Positions 2,923-9,771 of a stretch of 64,000 nt of DNA are shown here, piece by piece; position 1 is the first letter of the stretch; every line of letters starts with the position of its first letter. A program made the position numbers and the translations under genes. Where the stretch lies: positions 9,377-73,376 of the forward strand of contig CAMKQK010000002.1 of the NCBI GenBank assembly GCA_946414915.1, in the 5' to 3' direction. The stretch comes from an uncultured Bacillales bacterium (lineage in GTDB: Bacteria > Bacillota_I > Bacilli_A > RFN20 > CAG-826). Under the pieces are notes generated by a model, which worked only from the letters and a program-made list of their open reading frames with translations, ran no database searches and had not been told where the DNA came from.

Positions 2923-3604
2923 TTTATTAAGCAATGTTGATACAGTACTCGTGGCATTAATGGTCACTTTTATTGCTTTAATTATCAGTGTTCTTTTCAC
3001 TTTCCTGATTTCTTTAAAGATGAGAGGCACTAAAAGTTTCTTTGTGACTTCCGCGATTATGCCAATGATTGTGGCCGCGGTTGTCTCTATGGTTTCTATA
3101 TTCTTAGATCAAGCCACAACTGGAGTGGTACGAATCGCCACAATTGCGGTAGCTTTAGGCTTAATTAGATTTAGAAGTCAAAACGCTAAAGCAGAAGAGT
3201 TATTACTCTTATTTAGTGGTGTCGCTATTGGATTAATCAGTGGTTTAGGCTATGTCGTATTCGCTTTAATCTTCGCTTTAGTAATCGCAGGTTTATACAT
3301 TTTATTTACTAGCACTAAACTATTCTCTAATAAGAGATTTAATGGTGAAAAGTTATTAAAAATAACTATTCCGGAAACTTTAGAATATAGCGATGTCTTT
3401 TTAGATACGTTTGATCATTATTTAAAAAACAATGAACTAGTGGAAGTTAAGACCACAGCGATGGGATCTTTATTTAGACTTTCTTATCGCGTTGAGTTTA
3501 AAGATATCAAACAAGAAAAAGAATTCATTGATGAATTAAGAGTGAAGAACGGTAATCTTGAGATTTCGGTTCTTCCATATGTTGGTGAGGAGAAATCTTT
3601 ATGA
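2906..3604 (+). CDS. DUF4956-family membrane protein
   Basis: Multi-TM N-terminal half plus soluble C-terminal domain. Overlaps the VTC gene by 17 nt. This is the usual VTC partner arrangement. Confidence 0.65.
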   Translation: MNSLFSLLSNVDTVLVALMVTFIALIISVLFTFLISLKMRGTKSFFVTSAIMPMIVAAVVSMVSIFLDQATTGVVRIATIAVALGLIRFRSQNAKAEELLLLFSGVAIGLISGLGYVVFALIFALVIAGLYILFTSTKLFSNKRFNGEKLLKITIPETLEYSDVFLDTFDHYLKNNELVEVKTTAMGSLFRLSYRVEFKDIKQEKEFIDELRVKNGNLEISVLPYVGEEKSL

Positions 3605-5847
3605 ACAAGAAAGTATTTTTCATTCCATTAACCATGTTTCTTGCTCTATCTTTAGGAGCATGCAAACAAAAGTCACATAACAGTAATGAACCAAGTCAAA
3701 ACCAGAACACATCCTCTGTAAGTGGTGTGTCTCTTAACTATGAAGCTTTAACCATGTATGTCGGTAAAAGCGCGACTTTAACCGCCACCGTTGAACCAGA
3801 TACTGCCTCTAACAAGGAAGTTACTTGGTCATCAAGTGACACGAGTGTAGCCACAGTTAAAAACGGCACAATTAGCGCTCTTAAAGAAGGTAACTCTAAT
3901 ATTGTAGTGACCACTAAAGAAGGTAACTACACAGCTGCCTGTGCATTAACCGTGGTAACTGAAGAAGAGGATACTCCATATGTTCCAGATACAAGTGACA
4001 CAAATATCTACTTTGTGACTACTTCTAATCTAAATGAAGGAACATATGATTCTAGTAAGGATGAATATACTTTCTCCGTTAATAAAAACTATAAACAAAT
4101 CTATGTTAATGTTCCTGATAAAACCATTATCTTAGAACTCAATGGTGTAACTATTGAAAATAACGCCAATTCACCTATTTATGTAGAGGACTGCGATACC
4201 TTAGAGTTATCCGCGAAAAAGAGCACAACTAATAACATAAAAGATACACGTGGTGCCTATGTTACTGATCAACCAGGTCAAGGTAAGGGTGCAATATTTG
4301 TCAATAATGGTGACCTTAAACTTAAAGGTACAGGTACACTAAATATCAATGCTGGATATCTAAATGGTATTCACGGAAAAGATGATGTTAAGGTCCAAAA
4401 ACAAACATTAAATATAACCGCTGTTAATCACGCAATTAGAGGCAATGATAGTGTAACCATTACTAGTGGTACATTAGATATCTCTTGTGGTGGCGATGCC
4501 TTCCATACAGAGAATAGTGATGTTTCCTCAAAAGGTAATCAAAAAGGTGATGTCACCATAAATGGTGGTAACATCACTATTAACTCTTGGAGTGATGCTT
4601 TACAAGCCGCTCATGACGTGGTTATTGAAGAGTTAGATATGGAAGCTCCAATCAGCATGAATATTAAAACAAATAAGTATTCTTCCTATAGTGGTTCTAC
4701 TGTAGAAACAAGTACCTCAAACTTCTATTTAAGAATGAATAATTCTACCTACTCTAATGGTGGTTATACATATGCCGCTTTAATAAACGGACAATGGTAC
4801 GCTGCTAGCTATAAAGGCCCACAATCTAGTGGTAGTCAAGGTGGTCCTGGTGGAGGCGGTCATGGTGGTCCAGGAGGATCAAGTACATACCATATCTATC
4901 AAATTGCTAAACCAAGTGGTGCCACAAGCTTTACTTTATATCGCTTCCAAGGTAGTAATGTGACTTCATTTAACGCTGATAGTTATAACGCTATTAGTGA
5001 CGCTAAAGCCTTTAATGAAGCCTACGATATGGTCACTATCTCAGTGAGTAATAAAACGATTAGTTTCGGTAGCTGGGGTAATTATGCTTCAGGCAACTCT
5101 AATAGTGCAGATGTGTCCGCGAAAGGCATCAAAGCGGAAAACGAAATCTATATCAAATCTGGAACAATTAATATCAAAGCCTATGATGACGCAATCCACG
5201 CTAATAATGATGGCATTTTAGAAAACGGTACAACTCCATTAGGTAACATCAATATTTCTGGTGGTAGCTTAGTGCTTAACGCTAGTGATGATGGTATCCA
5301 CGCAGATAATATCGTTAATATCTCTGGTGGTGAAACACATGTTGAATCATCTTATGAAGGCATTGAAGGTAATGTCATCAACATTACAGGTGGTGAAACA
5401 TACGTCTATGCCACAGACGATGGTATGAACGCAACCAAGGGTAAAGCTAGCCCTGCTATTAATGTCAGCGATGGCTTCCTTGATGTGGAAGTTCCAACTA
5501 ACGGTGACACTGATGGTATCGATAGTAATGGAACATACAATCAAACAGGTGGTGTGGTCATTGTTAAAGGTCCAGGATCTGCAAGTGGTGCATCAGGTGG
5601 TGCAGCAGCTTTAGACACTGATGGTAGCGTTACTTTAAAAGACTGCACATTAATCATCTTTGGTGGCATGGAGAAGACTCCTAGCACCACAAATGTCACA
5701 AAGACAATTTGTTCTTCAACTACGGTTAGTACTGGTTCGCATTCAGTTTCATTCTCGTCTGGAAGTGCCAGCTACAATACAACACTAAAAACATCTTCAA
5801 AGGGATGCTTGGTCTATAGTGCGTTGGGTCAAGCAACATTGAAATAG
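3601..5847 (+). CDS. Surface lipoprotein with a Big_2 domain and a Cthe_2159-like beta-helix carbohydrate-binding domain
   Basis: Lipobox LSLGAC. Big_2-like segment (VTWSSSDTSVATV...). Repeated DD(A/G)IHA and (N/I)SGG beta-helix rungs. ATGA overlap with the upstream gene. Confidence 0.7.
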   Translation: MNKKVFFIPLTMFLALSLGACKQKSHNSNEPSQNQNTSSVSGVSLNYEALTMYVGKSATLTATVEPDTASNKEVTWSSSDTSVATVKNGTISALKEGNSNIVVTTKEGNYTAACALTVVTEEEDTPYVPDTSDTNIYFVTTSNLNEGTYDSSKDEYTFSVNKNYKQIYVNVPDKTIILELNGVTIENNANSPIYVEDCDTLELSAKKSTTNNIKDTRGAYVTDQPGQGKGAIFVNNGDLKLKGTGTLNINAGYLNGIHGKDDVKVQKQTLNITAVNHAIRGNDSVTITSGTLDISCGGDAFHTENSDVSSKGNQKGDVTINGGNITINSWSDALQAAHDVVIEELDMEAPISMNIKTNKYSSYSGSTVETSTSNFYLRMNNSTYSNGGYTYAALINGQWYAASYKGPQSSGSQGGPGGGGHGGPGGSSTYHIYQIAKPSGATSFTLYRFQGSNVTSFNADSYNAISDAKAFNEAYDMVTISVSNKTISFGSWGNYASGNSNSADVSAKGIKAENEIYIKSGTINIKAYDDAIHANNDGILENGTTPLGNINISGGSLVLNASDDGIHADNIVNISGGETHVESSYEGIEGNVINITGGETYVYATDDGMNATKGKASPAINVSDGFLDVEVPTNGDTDGIDSNGTYNQTGGVVIVKGPGSASGASGGAAALDTDGSVTLKDCTLIIFGGMEKTPSTTNVTKTICSSTTVSTGSHSVSFSSGSASYNTTLKTSSKGCLVYSALGQATLK

Positions 5848-5850
5848 TTT

Positions 5851-5904
5851 TCAGTGATAGGTTCCTTTCTCACGGAAAAGGTCAGGTCACTGATCTTTTC
5901 TTTT
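5851..5904 (+). terminator. Rho-independent terminator of the lipoprotein operon
   Basis: Outer stem TCAGTGA (5851-5857) / TCACTGA (5887-5893), inner CCTTT/AAAGG pairing, then TCTTTTCTTTT. Confidence 0.7.
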
Positions 5905-6151
5905 GCGCTAAATATATAAAAAGAAAGTGCGAGCGCACCCCCATGCAAGCAGGTGCCTGCACACACCTAAATGCGCATACAAAATATAAAAAGATAAATA
6001 ATTAATAAAAATTCATAAAAAATGTATTAAAAATAGCTAAAAATAATATAAATAACAAAAAATATTAAAAATTTTCATATTAAAAAAGTAAGACTATATC
6101 GAAGAAAAATAATATTAATAAAAAATAATTAAAAAATTTTTAAAAAAAGTG

Positions 6152-6185
6152 TTGCAATAAAAATTAAATAAGCGCATACTATAAT
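6152..6185 (+). promoter_or_regulatory. Candidate sigma-A promoter for the large RNA
   Basis: TTGCAA (6152-6157), then 17 nt, then CATACT (6175-6180). A perfect TATAAT lies at 6180-6185, but its spacer is 22 nt. About 160 bp of phased A-tracts lie upstream. The exact -10 is ambiguous. Confidence 0.35.
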
Positions 6186-6292
6186 AACCCACCAGGGAAA
6201 CTGAGTGGTAAGATAATAAGAATTGATAGATTCTTATATATCTTAAGTCCAGGTAAATCAATCAACGCAGGTACTTAAGTTGCTAAAGCGTT

Positions 6293-6440
6293 TCTGAGAT
6301 TAAAGAAAAAGCTCAGATCAATGATTGTACTGGCAGGTTGGAGCAATCCAATCAAGGGCAAAATCCTCACTGCTACAGTGGATGCTGAATTAGAGTTTGA
6401 CAGCGTAAGACCACCGCCCGACAAGATCGAAGAGGAAGAT
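6293..6440 (+). repeat. Structured unit 1 of the tri-partite RNA
   Basis: TCTGAG-[ATTAAAG...]-CTCAGA hairpin (6293-6317). CACTG-CTA-CAGTG (6368-6380). GCTG...CAGC (6384-6404). GTAAGACCACCGCCCGACA...CGAAGAGGA (6405-6436). Confidence 0.8.
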
Positions 6441-6598
6441 GAAGGCCAATAACCCATCAAACACCCCACATTCAGGCTAAAGCAACTCAAAACCTGAAAT
6501 AAGTTAGCTGGTCAGTAATGGCACAGCGAGCGAATGGGCGAAAACTTAGCCTTAAAAAGTAAGACGATCACCACTAAAACGACGTTGATAGTAAGGCT

Positions 6599-6745
6599 CT
6601 GGGATTAAAGCTCCCAGTTAATGATCGCAAAAGGCTGGAAATCCTTCGGGAAATCCAAACGGCAAACCTCACTTGAAAAGTGGTAGCTGAGTTAGAGCTT
6701 AACAGCGTAAAACCACCGCCGGACACAAAGACGAAGAGGGAAAAC
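6599..6745 (+). repeat. Structured unit 2 of the tri-partite RNA
   Basis: CTGGG-[ATTAAAGCT]-CCCAG (6599-6617). CACTT-GAA-AAGTG (6670-6682). GCTG...CAGC (6686-6706). GTAAAACCACCGCCGGACA...GACGAAGAGGG (6707-6740). Confidence 0.8.
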
Positions 6746-6908
6746 AAAGATCCAGTTATGAAAAACATAACGGAAAAGCCTAAATCGCATTACTCAACCT
6801 AACGTGAGATGATAGTAAGAGAACCCAGATGGAAATCTTACAAAGAAAAGGCCTAAAGAGCTTAAGACTAGGTCAGTCAACCACCTCCATTAACTGATTA
6901 TGGAGCCT

Positions 6909-7066
6909 CGAAGGATTAAAGAACCGTCGTTAACTGGTTGCACTAGCAAAGAATCATCAGAAATGGTGATTATCGGTACGATCCCACCTGACTGGCAACA
7001 GTCACCGGCATCTGCGTTAAAGCTTGGCAGAGTAAACCCGGCACCGGACATGACGAAGAGGATAAC
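6909..7066 (+). repeat. Structured unit 3 of the tri-partite RNA (most diverged)
   Basis: CGAAGG-[ATTAAAGAA]-CCGTCG (6909-6929, one mismatch). GACTG-GCAA-CAGTC (6990-7003). CTGC...GCAG (7012-7030). GTAAACCCGGCACCGGACATGACGAAGAGGA (7032-7062). Confidence 0.75.
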
Positions 7067-7202
7067 AGTTCCAAAGCTAATGACTTGGAAAAGCTGGCCA
7101 TTAATGCGCTACTCAGTTCAAAACGCATTTTACCAAGAAGCATCACCAGCGAACGCAGCTTAACTTGGGTATCTGGTAACAGGTACAACGGTTCAAAAGA
7201 AG

Positions 7203-7240
7203 GAAGCGGAAATTGTCCGCTTCTTTCTTTTTGTTTTTGT
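7203..7240 (+). terminator. Rho-independent terminator at the 3' end of the large RNA
   Basis: GAAGCGGA (7203-7210), loop AATTG, TCCGCTTC (7216-7223), then TTTCTTTTTGTTTTTGT. Confidence 0.85.
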
Positions 7241-7254
7241 ATTAAACTATTGGT

Positions 7255-8079
7255 ATGTACGATCCGCATTCAACTAGATATAAATATCCAGATTTTACTG
7301 ACCAACATTATTTAGTGGTGAAAAAGAATAATGGTGCTGTTTTTGATGAGAATTACCCATATATTGATAATTCTAAAGGCTTTAGATTTAAAAAATGGTG
7401 GGTACGTGTATTATTAAACTTAATTGTTTTCCCAATTTGTCCTATTTACATGGGATTAAAAATTAAAGGTAGAAAGAACTTAAAAATATATAAAGATGAG
7501 CTATCTAATGGAGCGATAACTGTCTCTAATCATGTCCATATGTGGGACTATATTGCCGTGATTAAAGCCATTAGACCAAGAAAACCAAGAGTGTTAGTCT
7601 GGGCCCCTAATGTTAGAGGGGAAAGTGGTACTTTAGTTAGATTAGTAGGGGGTATCCCTATCCCTGATAATGATTTAGGCGGCAAAGTAGCCTGTAATAA
7701 AGCAGTGGAACAATATCTCAATGATGGAGGGTTCCTACAAATATATGCTGAAGGTAGTATGTGGGAATGTTATCCATATATTAGGCCATTCCATACAGGC
7801 GCTATGTCTTTAGCGTGTCGACTTAATAAACCGATATTACCGATTGGTTTCTCTTTTAGAAAACCTAGTTGGATAAGAAAACATATATTTAAACAAGAAG
7901 TAGCGATTACTCTAACTATTGGTAAACCTTTATTTAAGGATGAAAACTTAAAAGAAGGTGAACAACGTATCGATTTAGCTAAACGAACACATCATGAAGT
8001 ATGTTTACTTGCGGATGTTGATCCTAAAGAAAATATCTACGAACCAATATTCAATAACTCAAAAAGAATCGATAAATAA
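7255..8079 (+). CDS. PlsC-family lysophospholipid/1-acylglycerol-3-phosphate acyltransferase-like protein
   Basis: HX4D motif NHVHMWD and YAEGSMW motif, plus an N-terminal TM. The start has no recognisable Shine-Dalgarno and lies 15 nt after the RNA terminator. Confidence 0.8.
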   Translation: MYDPHSTRYKYPDFTDQHYLVVKKNNGAVFDENYPYIDNSKGFRFKKWWVRVLLNLIVFPICPIYMGLKIKGRKNLKIYKDELSNGAITVSNHVHMWDYIAVIKAIRPRKPRVLVWAPNVRGESGTLVRLVGGIPIPDNDLGGKVACNKAVEQYLNDGGFLQIYAEGSMWECYPYIRPFHTGAMSLACRLNKPILPIGFSFRKPSWIRKHIFKQEVAITLTIGKPLFKDENLKEGEQRIDLAKRTHHEVCLLADVDPKENIYEPIFNNSKRIDK

Positions 8080-8129: not shown

Positions 8130-8354
8130 TTAAGCTCTTGCGATTCTGAAGCGATTCTCGTAGTCATAGACATAAGCAATATCGTGCTTGTTATTATCGA
8201 TGAAATATTCATCGTTGATTCTAAGATCGACTAGGCCATGTCTACTGTAGTAATTGAAGATGTAATCAATAGCTTTAGTTCTGGTGTTAAACTTGTGGCG
8301 GAATTGAATGAATCTTCCATCTACGACGGCTTCTAATGTGTACTTATTCATCAT
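8130..8354 (-). CDS. Small hypothetical protein (74 aa)
   Basis: ORF with an AAGAGG-type RBS upstream on the minus strand. No family recognised. Confidence 0.45.
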   Translation of the reverse strand: MMNKYTLEAVVDGRFIQFRHKFNTRTKAIDYIFNYYSRHGLVDLRINDEYFIDNNKHDIAYVYDYENRFRIARA

Positions 8355-8497: not shown

Positions 8498-9421
8498 ATG
8501 ATTGGACTTTATATTGCTTTAGGCATCATAGGATTCATTATCTTATTCATTGTTCTCGCGGTTATAACGATGTATCGTTTAATCTTCTTTTCACCGAGAA
8601 AAGGACAAATAAGTGACGCCACTTTAGTGGGTTCTAAAAACTTTCAACACTATGAAGAGATGATGAAAGAAAACATCCTCTCTTTTATAACTAAAGAGTA
8701 TGAAGATGTTTATATTGATTCATTTGATAAGTTAAAGCTGCACGCTAGATTGTTTGATAATAAAGAGTCTAAGAAGATCGCTATATTGTTACATGGTTAT
8801 AAAGGCACAGTTTATCGTGACTTTAACTCTATTAGTAAAATACTCTTTGAAGAAGGCTATAAAGTATTAGCCATTGATGAAAGAGCACATGGCTTATCTG
8901 AAGGCCACGTCATTACCTTTGGTGTTAGAGAAAGTAAAGACCTCTTATCTTGGTTAGATTACGTTAGTAAGAGATTTAATAATCCAGAAATATTACTAGT
9001 GGGTGTCTCTATGGGCGCTCATACGATATTAAACTCAGCGGATAAGATTGATAAAAGCATCAAGATTATCGCTGATTGTCCATATGCATCCCCTAAGGAG
9101 ATATTAGTGAGCACGATTAAATCAGTACATTTACCAGTCTTTATCTTTTATCCACTTCTTAATTTAACTAGTCATATATTCGCTCACGAAAGCTTAAATA
9201 AAACATCAGCGTATAATTCCATTAAGAATAGTGATAACAAAATACTTATCATGCACGGTGATAAAGATCATGTTATTCCATATACCATATCTAAGAAATT
9301 AGCGGATACCTACCCTCATAAAATAAGATATGAAGTATTTAAAAACGCTGACCATGGTGCATCAGCGTTAGTGGATTTCGATAGATATCAGAGAGTAGTG
9401 AAAGAGTTCTTAGATAACTAG
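8498..9421 (+). CDS. Alpha/beta hydrolase with N-terminal membrane anchor
   Basis: TM at the N-terminus, HG oxyanion motif (LLHGYKG), nucleophile elbow GVSMGA, C-terminal HG(D)KD...DH catalytic-type residues. Confidence 0.8.
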   Translation: MIGLYIALGIIGFIILFIVLAVITMYRLIFFSPRKGQISDATLVGSKNFQHYEEMMKENILSFITKEYEDVYIDSFDKLKLHARLFDNKESKKIAILLHGYKGTVYRDFNSISKILFEEGYKVLAIDERAHGLSEGHVITFGVRESKDLLSWLDYVSKRFNNPEILLVGVSMGAHTILNSADKIDKSIKIIADCPYASPKEILVSTIKSVHLPVFIFYPLLNLTSHIFAHESLNKTSAYNSIKNSDNKILIMHGDKDHVIPYTISKKLADTYPHKIRYEVFKNADHGASALVDFDRYQRVVKEFLDN

Positions 9422-9771
9422 TTTGCTTTTCCAAATAGCTCTTCTTGGATTGCTAAGAAATCTTCTTTTAAATCTGGTAAGTTTCTTAATGCAGTTTGAT
9501 AGATTTGAGCAGCGTCAACTTTATTATAAATGTGAACGATGAGTATTCTTAATGCTCTTGCTTCATCCCATGGAAGTGATGGATATTTTTCAGCGAGATG
9601 CTTTTCCATTTTTATCATTTGTTCGCCGATTTGCGCAATTGAGAAGCAAGTGGCTCTAACTAATAAATCTGATTCTGCGAATTGTTCCATTGTTTTGCCT
9701 TGCAAGTCAGACATGACTGTATCGATGTTGTTTAATAGGACACGAATCCTATCTTTTACTGAATTATCCAT
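9418..9771 (-). CDS. hepT: HepT-like (DUF86/HEPN) ribonuclease toxin
   Basis: Rx4HxY motif R-ILIV-H-I-Y, size about 117 aa. Overlaps the upstream nucleotidyltransferase gene by 8 nt. Confidence 0.8.
   Translation of the reverse strand: MDNSVKDRIRVLLNNIDTVMSDLQGKTMEQFAESDLLVRATCFSIAQIGEQMIKMEKHLAEKYPSLPWDEARALRILIVHIYNKVDAAQIYQTALRNLPDLKEDFLAIQEELFGKAN

Follow-up and report, generated by a model that had tools for sequence, protein, structure and literature searches.

The subject of this study is a gene in a 64,000-nucleotide (nt) stretch of DNA, hereafter the window, from an uncultured Bacillales bacterium (contig CAMKQK010000002.1). The gene, whose predicted full transcript of ~1,050 nt extends from 6187 to 7236 on the + strand, almost certainly encodes a structured, stand-alone noncoding RNA (ncRNA) with a three-module architecture. 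The RNA is composed of a leader of ~60 nt, three tandem paralogous modules of ~300 nt and a tail that contains the terminator, and the core of the 3' domain in each module is the Rfam motif cow-rumen-1. A preliminary description, made from the letters of the window, had proposed a single structured ncRNA of ~1 kb on this strand with its own promoter and terminator, and this proposal is supported by conservation, by covariation and by an excess of G.U pairs.

Tandem units under selection for base pairing

No long open reading frame (ORF) is found between 5848 and 7254, an interval flanked by ORFs of 748 amino acids (aa; 3601-5847) and 274 aa (7255-8079). As had been noted in the preliminary description, this is the largest ORF-poor gap locally. 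A block of 56-62 nt occurs in it at 6380, again 302 nt later at 6682 and a third time after a further 325 nt, at 7007, which agrees with the three tandem paralogous units that were claimed, and the ~300-nt units around the repeated block show 66% mean column identity when aligned. Related loci were gathered with a degenerate motif pattern in species-representative genomes (21 loci) and with a looser pattern in metagenome contigs (at least 120), giving at least 141 in all. Among the matches listed, there are 52 distinct full-length three-unit sequences with 60-95% identity to the window, and across these homologues conservation is limited to the interval between promoter and terminator.

Covariation in the 52 full-length homologues backs ~45 helices. 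In a model of the whole RNA, 216 pairs are 93.3% canonical, compared to 83.0% in shuffled controls (maximum 83.4) and 29-42% in slid controls, and 140 of the pairs are changed on both sides, compared to 86 after shuffling (maximum 96). An independent check was made on module 3 and the tail, using 32 diverse sequences (alignment A6) and 78 pairs that include three kinds of pseudoknot bracket. There, the modeled pairs were 92.8% paired versus 80.8%, 52 versus 31.7 pairs were changed on both sides and the covariation was 0.397 versus 0.169; none of 500 shuffles reached any of these measures, and slid versions scored 0.102 or less. The selection on base pairing that had been suspected from the three units of the window is therefore apparent in both counts, which lie far above the shuffles. 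Cells with G.U (474) greatly outnumber those with A.C (125), indicating that the + strand is the RNA.

The short ORFs of the element (43-99 aa) are not conserved and are no longer than in shuffled sequence, as expected from the earlier claim that it has no coding ORF. The median length of the longest open frame is 84 codons in the 52 homologues versus 89 in shuffled sequence, no 3-nt periodicity of substitutions is seen (column variability by codon phase of 0.215, 0.229 and 0.213), and genetic code table 4 gives no conserved frame. Contigs encoding a spurious 87-aa ORF are all metagenome contigs, and no expression evidence was found for it. These results bear on the idea that the element is not an RNA gene at all, but a repeat acting as DNA (iterons, a satellite or the end of a mobile element) or a gene for a repetitive protein, perhaps in another genetic code. 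Tandem repetition, antisense ORFs of 53-99 aa and the presence of multiple copies per genome could be read in this way. However, in addition to the coding tests, there are hundreds of compensatory pair changes and strand-specific G.U pairs, and the RNA has no match in phage, plasmid and viral collections. A non-RNA explanation is already refuted by the covariation, and we regard it as essentially excluded, with a probability close to nil.

Promoter, terminator and transcript ends

The promoter region (6128-6185, + strand) is predicted to consist of an A/T tract resembling an UP element, a -35 sequence TTGCAA (6152-6157), a 17-nt spacer and a -10 sequence CATACT (6175-6180). Conservation across the 52 homologues begins with the A/T tract near 6128, and TTG (6152-6154), A6176 and T6180 are invariant. 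Of the 52 homologues, 47 have the pattern TTGnnn-N16-18-[TC]AnnnT, and the candidate promoter of the preliminary description is thus both found in the window and widely kept. Upstream of the promoter lies a run of ~175 nt (5975-6150) that is nearly pure A/T with repeats of 10-11-nt period; homologues keep its proximal part, 6128-6150, which resembles an UP element.

At the 3' end is an intrinsic terminator (7195-7240, + strand) made of a 16-bp stem (7195-7210/7216-7231) followed by a T-run, and conservation collapses just past it. All 52 homologues have a hairpin of -8 kcal/mol or better before four or more T residues, with stem sequences that are unrelated to each other. The strong terminator had been recognized previously, as had the lack of terminators between the units, where none was found. 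Given that ~20 nt separate the terminator from the start codon of the following gene (7255), which is on the same strand, the element might instead be a cis-acting leader, with a tandem riboswitch or attenuator controlling the downstream acyltransferase gene through the hairpin at 7195-7231, and tandem aptamers do exist, for example in glycine riboswitches. Nevertheless, the genes downstream belong to different families in different loci and in some cases lie on the other strand, there are several copies per genome, and the RNA is 1-2.2 kb long. A strong, constitutive-looking terminator is seen in all 52 homologues, for which no alternative antiterminator could be found. Cis-regulation is highly improbable, and we treat it as essentially excluded.

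Twenty independent contigs contain the RNA alone and are either 1.00-1.05 kb (three units) or ~1.68 kb (five units) in length. With 150-176 nt ahead of the first motif and 140-168 nt beyond the last, their ends fall within ~25-30 nt of the start site and the terminator as predicted here, and the datasets from which they come never yield the flanking genes, just RNA-sized contigs. Based on the match of the ends to the predicted transcript and on the missing flanking genes, we infer that these contigs are assembled transcripts. In that case, they would show that the full-length RNA is abundant. The RNA is multi-copy and probably highly expressed. A separate contig of 2.4 kb, from a probable metatranscriptome (L058, 1-2364), has arrays on both strands, with two units on the - strand and five on the + strand; these could be convergent genes or a chimeric assembly.

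Leader and module architecture

The leader (6187-6245) contains a small GNRA-type hairpin (6194-6203) and a hairpin H1 that is supported by covariation and has an outer (6209-6213/6241-6245) and an inner helix (6217-6224/6229-6236). The inner helix is 99% paired, and five of its pairs vary on both sides. The outer helix is found at the site that the long-range helix K2 takes before modules 2 and 3. Each of the modules, all on the + strand, has five parts: a three-way junction (helices Pa and Pb and hairpins X and A), a hairpin S4, a pseudoknotted 3' domain, hairpins H0 and H1, and a 6-nt strand that belongs to K2. Module 1 (6246-6547) is made up of Pa (6249-6252/6330-6333), Pb (6259-6264/6322-6327), X (6265-6268/6288-6291), A (6293-6298/6312-6317, loop ATTAAAG), S4 (6338-6342/6347-6351, GCAA loop), the 3' domain (6356-6436), H0 (6471-6476/6493-6498), H1 (6503-6531) and the K2 strand (6542-6547). 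In module 2 (6548-6863), these are Pa (6548-6553/6631-6636), Pb (6565-6570/6622-6627), A (6599-6604/6612-6617), S4 (6638-6655, UUCG loop), the 3' domain (6660-6739), H0 (6784-6790/6804-6810), H1 (6815-6841) and the K2 strand (6858-6863). Module 3 (6864-7161) has Pa (6868-6871/6943-6946), Pb (6878-6883/6935-6940), X (6885-6888/6902-6905), A (6909-6914/6924-6929), S4 (6952-6959/6964-6971, GAAA loop) and the 3' domain (6974-7063), followed by helices T1 (7069-7072/7087-7090) and T2 (7093-7097/7146-7150), an H0-like hairpin (7103-7108/7124-7129) and the K2 strand (7156-7161).

For the junction domain, RNAalifold run on a mixed-type MAFFT alignment recovered helix Pb alone because of indels, and per-position alignments of orthologous units were used in its place. 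In these, changes on both sides support all of the local helices, namely leader H1, Pa, Pb, X, A, S4, B, P1, P2, H0 and H1. The hairpins drawn in the preliminary description fared differently in this comparison. Its hairpin D corresponds to P2 of the Rfam model and shows compensatory changes in homologues. Hairpin A is likewise present and compensated in homologues, although the copy in unit 3 has one A.G mismatch, and its loops start exactly at 6299, 6604 and 6915 as described but are not invariant, since homologues have ATCAAA, GTTAAA and others in place of ATTAAAG. The stems listed for hairpin B exist, but in units 1 and 2 they are just 2-4 bp long and overlap Rfam helix P1.

Two long-range contacts join distant parts of each module. 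They emerged from a strict scan, covering every pair of columns of the full-length alignment, in which changes were required on both sides; a permissive scan of paired columns was swamped by G-U noise. The first, K1, is a kissing contact between the loops of hairpins X and H0 that spans ~200 nt. In module 1, it pairs AGUUGC (6278-6283) with GCAACU (6482-6487), and the equivalents are 6584-6588/6794-6798 in module 2 and 6892-6897/7113-7118 in module 3. K1 covaries in modules 1 and 3 (GUUGAC/GUCAAC; 6894-7116 is UA in 27, CG in 17 and UG in 8), whereas in module 2 it is invariant but complementary. The second, K2, is a helix of 6 bp between the apical loop of cow-rumen-1 (GAGyUU) and a hexamer ~150 nt downstream, and is, like K1, absent from the Rfam model. 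It pairs GAGUUU (6393-6398) with AAACUU (6542-6547) in module 1, and is formed by 6695-6700/6858-6863 and 7020-7025/7156-7161 in modules 2 and 3. In the 52 RNAs, K2 is 96-100% canonical with balanced exchanges between G-C and A-U and between U-A and C-G (for example, 6395-6545 is GC in 29 and AU in 23, and 6396-6544 is UA in 26 and CG in 25). In an alignment-free test that took in domains of five- and seven-unit arrays, a complementary hexamer was found 60-170 nt downstream in 140 of 147 domains, versus 59 of 147 when hexamers were exchanged between modules. Both contacts of module 3 are among the helices counted in the module 3 check described above (helix 4 and helix 12).

The partners of K1 and K2 are both downstream, and shifting the repeat frame accordingly gives the self-contained modules 6246-6547, 6548-6863 and 6864-7161. 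After this re-phasing, K1 and K2 are both intra-module, and no covarying contact between modules was found. The K2 strand of module 1 abuts Pa of module 2 (6547|6548), and the corresponding strand or site ends 3-4 nt before Pa in modules 1 and 3, so coaxial stacking is possible. Sequences CCUAAA(U/G) and UAUGG occur in the window at 6776-6782, 6852-6858, 6899-6903 and 6960-6963, and the S4 loop of module 3 is GAAA; we take them to resemble the halves of the 11-nt GAAA-tetraloop receptor, and they may make a tertiary contact.

Modules that are structurally self-contained could also be the products of a polycistronic precursor, with three working RNAs of ~300 nt being released through self-cleavage or by an RNase, and both the lack of terminators between the units and the invariant junction nucleotides, a ribozyme-like pattern, would suit such a precursor. 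However, the transcript-like contigs are full length (1.0 kb and 1.68 kb), and models of self-cleaving ribozyme families (hammerhead, twister, pistol, hatchet, HDV-like and others) gave no match even at E = 10. Furthermore, the close spacing of the K2 strand and the next Pa suggests that a physical link is intended. Processing into separate RNAs therefore appears quite unlikely.

A proposed revision of the cow-rumen-1 structure

A scan of the 64-kb window with Rfam 15 gave exactly three matches, one per unit and all to RF02946, at 6375-6435 (79.2 bits), 6677-6739 (74.0 bits) and 7002-7061 (73.9 bits) of the + strand. Each covers model positions 1-61 of 61 and is well above the gathering score of 53.4 bits, and homologous loci match RF02946 also. 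RF02946 is an uncharacterized motif of 61 nt that accounts for ~17% of the RNA. The preliminary description had found nothing known that resembled the element. That view does not hold, as the 61-nt core is already cataloged, and with a confident family match the RNA cannot be called entirely new.

The extended 3' domain contains two helices, a-a' and b-b', that are absent from the Rfam model and that both use the tail drawn there as unpaired. Helix a-a' is formed between an xGGy sequence that lies upstream of the motif and y'CCx', and is GGGC/GCCC in module 1 (6356-6359/6416-6419), CGGC/GCCG in module 2 (6660-6663/6718-6721) and CGGU/ACCG in module 3 (6974-6977/7043-7046). Across 316 units, its variable position shows all four Watson-Crick combinations, with counts of 95 for GCCG/CGGC, 86 for ACCG/CGGT, 61 for GCCC/GGGY, 7 for GCCT/AGGY and 2 for GCCA/TGGC. 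Helix b-b' joins CCUC to GAGG with one or two covarying flanking pairs (UA 76, AU 15, CG 10). It is UCCUC/GAGGA in module 1 (6364-6368/6432-6436), where it had been suggested previously as a closing helix, and it shows compensatory changes in homologues; in modules 2 and 3, it is formed by 6667-6670/6736-6739 and 6981-6984/7060-7063, the latter with two pairs changed on both sides. Since a-a' crosses b-b', the two form an H-type pseudoknot. What had been taken for a conserved single-stranded block is consequently paired: CCAC is the 3' strand of P1, GCCx pairs with the upstream xGGC, and GAGG pairs with CCUC. In a covariance-model alignment of 150 domains, covariation of the 3' domain was 0.321 versus 0.134 when shuffled, with none of 500 shuffles as high and slid partners at 0.068 or less. 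Rfam helix P1 is 100% paired with three pairs changed on both sides, and all five pairs of P2a are changed on both sides.

Other known families were not detected. Apart from RF02946, no Rfam 15 family, HEARO included, reached its gathering score in the 64-kb window, and at E up to 10 the interval 5850-7350 gave just weak terminator matches and a few isolated sub-threshold matches. There was no match to ROOL, GOLLD, OLE, raiA or any riboswitch or ribozyme; as a positive control, the same covariance-model tool detected ROOL in locus L039. Riboswitches, T-boxes and tRNAs were likewise not matched in ~280 kb of homologous loci, and the window (1-64000) contains no tRNA gene. The 300-325-nt units are unlike the short tandem repeats of ~20-40 nt seen in ToxI-like or CsrB-like RNAs, and no conserved neighboring protein gene was found that could be an adjacent toxin of the ToxI type. 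Resemblances to a CsrA-type GGA sponge, to a T-box and to a sarcin-ricin-like element were considered and dropped, their defining sequences not being matched. RF02946 stems from a survey of 224 motifs (PMC5737381), the main text of which is silent on cow-rumen-1, and literature searches by motif name and for a large tandem rumen RNA returned no description of the larger RNA, the survey being covered through its main text.

Array size and unit order

All of the 21 genome loci belong to metagenome-assembled genomes labeled Bacilli, Bacillales or Erysipelotrichaceae, and the record titles of most name the foregut of cattle, goat, yak, buffalo or water deer. In a profile scan, the motif is almost never solitary among the matches listed. 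Complete arrays among these have three units (n=49), five units (n=7) or one unit (n=1); no complete array has an even number, and all arrays of two or four units run off the ends of their contigs. One array clipped by a contig end has at least 7 units and is at least 2.2 kb long (L049). The order of unit types among the listed matches is fixed as 1-2-3, 1-2-1-2-3 or, in general, (1-2)n-3. Five-module loci of ~1.7 kb are exemplified by L011, L012, L025, L070 and L097, and the duplicated units of five-unit arrays are just 60-78% identical to each other, indicating that the expansion is old. Several contigs bear two arrays and genomes hold several copies; in L011 and L097, three- and five-unit genes are found together on single contigs. 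Locus L097 also has, at 3118-3350 on the - strand, an orphan 3' domain and tail with no junction domain upstream, which could represent either a remnant left by truncation or a minimal version of the RNA.

The strict (1-2)n-3 order and the restriction to odd module numbers invite a different view of the RNA, in which the modules pack through RNA alone into a closed pseudo-symmetric particle, possibly also between molecules, as a covalently linked counterpart of the homo-oligomeric assemblies of ROOL, GOLLD and OLE. Consistent with such packing, type-specific differences persist across species, the duplicated modules are old, three- and five-module genes share one genome, many invariant unpaired A-rich segments are free for tertiary contacts, and one host also has ROOL 1.35 kb away. 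However, no covarying inter-module contact was found, and a variable number of modules speaks against one fixed closed geometry, making an assembly of this kind rather unlikely. A broader version, which is doubtful but a little easier to entertain, is a new class of giant modular bacterial RNAs of 1.05 to at least 2.2 kb that concatenate a triple-pseudoknotted fold of ~300 nt three, five or at least seven times, with module types alternating in a fixed order, and whose modules would form an RNA-only nano-architecture or a catalytic or encapsulating particle, a cis-linked analog of the ROOL and GOLLD cages.

A possible multivalent, trans-acting RNA

Overall, the explanation that we favor, with moderate confidence, is that of a modular ncRNA gene with a trans-acting product that would serve as a multivalent scaffold or binder. 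The RNA would be made as one abundant full-length transcript, and action in trans as the full-length RNA is probable. If K2 stacks coaxially on the Pa that follows it, the modules would be held in a rigid row, as beads are on a rod. Every module would present the same nearly invariant junction, comprising GUAA, GACA-N3-CGAA, UUAGAG and the A loop AUUAAA, and these nucleotides may form a binding or active pocket. The same pocket in each module would make the RNA a multivalent scaffold or binder for a protein, a small molecule or RNA, with a valency set by the module number of 3, 5 or at least 7; we put this part forward tentatively. The preliminary description had pictured a pseudo-threefold architecture or a multivalent binder. 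Arrays of five and at least seven units weigh against a strict threefold arrangement, and the multivalent part is retained as our preferred guess.

Several observations count against this explanation. The energy of single-sequence folding is unexceptional for each module (z = -1.0 to -1.4), and the case for more than chance therefore rests on repetition and covariation, not on thermodynamics. The odd-only module numbers in strict order hint at specific module-module packing, and simple additive valency fails to explain arrays of odd number and fixed order. Among the loci compared, no protein gene is consistently linked to the RNA. In addition, the 3-bp apical helix of the Rfam model (UAGA loop), which is 90% paired, shares nucleotides with K2. 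The two are mutually exclusive, yet each shows some covariation, K2 being more consistently Watson-Crick. The fold may therefore switch, and the apical helix and K2 may form in turn during transcription.

Genomic neighborhood

The neighbors in the window are a Cthe_2159/Big_2 surface protein and an acyltransferase, and of the 57 window ORFs that reach 150 aa, all but one (56) are on the + strand. Among distant loci, the flanking genes vary and are on either strand. Cthe_2159/Big_2 proteins recur but at varying positions and orientations, and acyltransferases are confined to close relatives; neither was retained as a functional partner, and a look-up of the acyltransferase protein gave no record. 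An ORF of 73-74 aa (8130-8354 of the window, - strand) that has no Pfam match recurs in 11 loci of the close clade, where it is located 0.1-1.7 kb downstream of the RNA and is directly adjacent to it in some (L015, L073 and L135). In L039, ROOL (RF03087, 213 bits) is at 6623-7166 on the + strand, ~1.35 kb upstream of the three-module RNA (8515-9577) and on the same strand. ROOL was not detected in the other 25 loci scanned, and with one occurrence in 26 the linkage is probably coincidental.

Relationship to known RNAs and significance

The RNA agrees with cow-rumen-1 in that its three units match the full 61-position model, contain P1, P2 and the tail CCGGACA...CGAAGAGG, and come from a rumen habitat. 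The Rfam entry, however, is an 'sRNA' of 61 nt in which the tail is unpaired and the apical hairpin closed, whereas here the motif is approximately one fifth of a module of ~300 nt, three of which make up 1.05 kb. ROOL, GOLLD and OLE are large, ornate, multi-pseudoknotted stand-alone RNAs of Firmicutes or rumen bacteria for which the function is unknown (the main text of PMC5737381; bioRxiv 10.1101/2024.12.08.627333). The RNA described here is similarly large, multi-pseudoknotted and stand-alone, and shares a host with ROOL in one case (L039), but it has no sequence or structure match to them and no phage association. Furthermore, those RNAs are single-copy folds that multimerize in trans, whereas this one repeats its fold 3, 5 or at least 7 times per chain.

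Tandem paralogous structured domains in one transcript are also found in the glycine riboswitch, which has two homologous aptamers in a cis-regulatory leader of ~200 nt before a defined class of genes. Unlike that leader, the present RNA is 1-2.2 kb long and ends in a terminator of its own, and the genes next to it are unrelated. The CsrB/RsmZ sponges are trans-acting RNAs with repeated GGA hairpin units of ~20-30 nt, and they too vary in repeat number between genes. By contrast, the units here are pseudoknotted and 300 nt long, and the junction GGA is missing from type-1 modules, which have CCCGACA.

As far as the tools and literature searched show, the 1.05-kb RNA, its three-, five- and seven-module forms, the ~300-nt module and four pairing classes beyond the Rfam model have not been described before. 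To our knowledge, very few bacterial RNAs other than ribosomal RNA exceed 1 kb with such a density of conserved structure, and we know of no other that is built by concatenating a large pseudoknotted fold. A detailed pairing model is already backed by 52 diverse homologues. The size of the RNA, ~340 kDa for three modules and more than 500 kDa for five, makes it well suited to cryo-electron microscopy. The finding makes an Rfam 'sRNA' motif part of a much larger RNA and proposes a corrected secondary structure for it, and other short motifs derived from metagenomes may likewise be parts of larger RNAs. The bacteria that carry this one are widespread uncultured members of the ruminant foregut.

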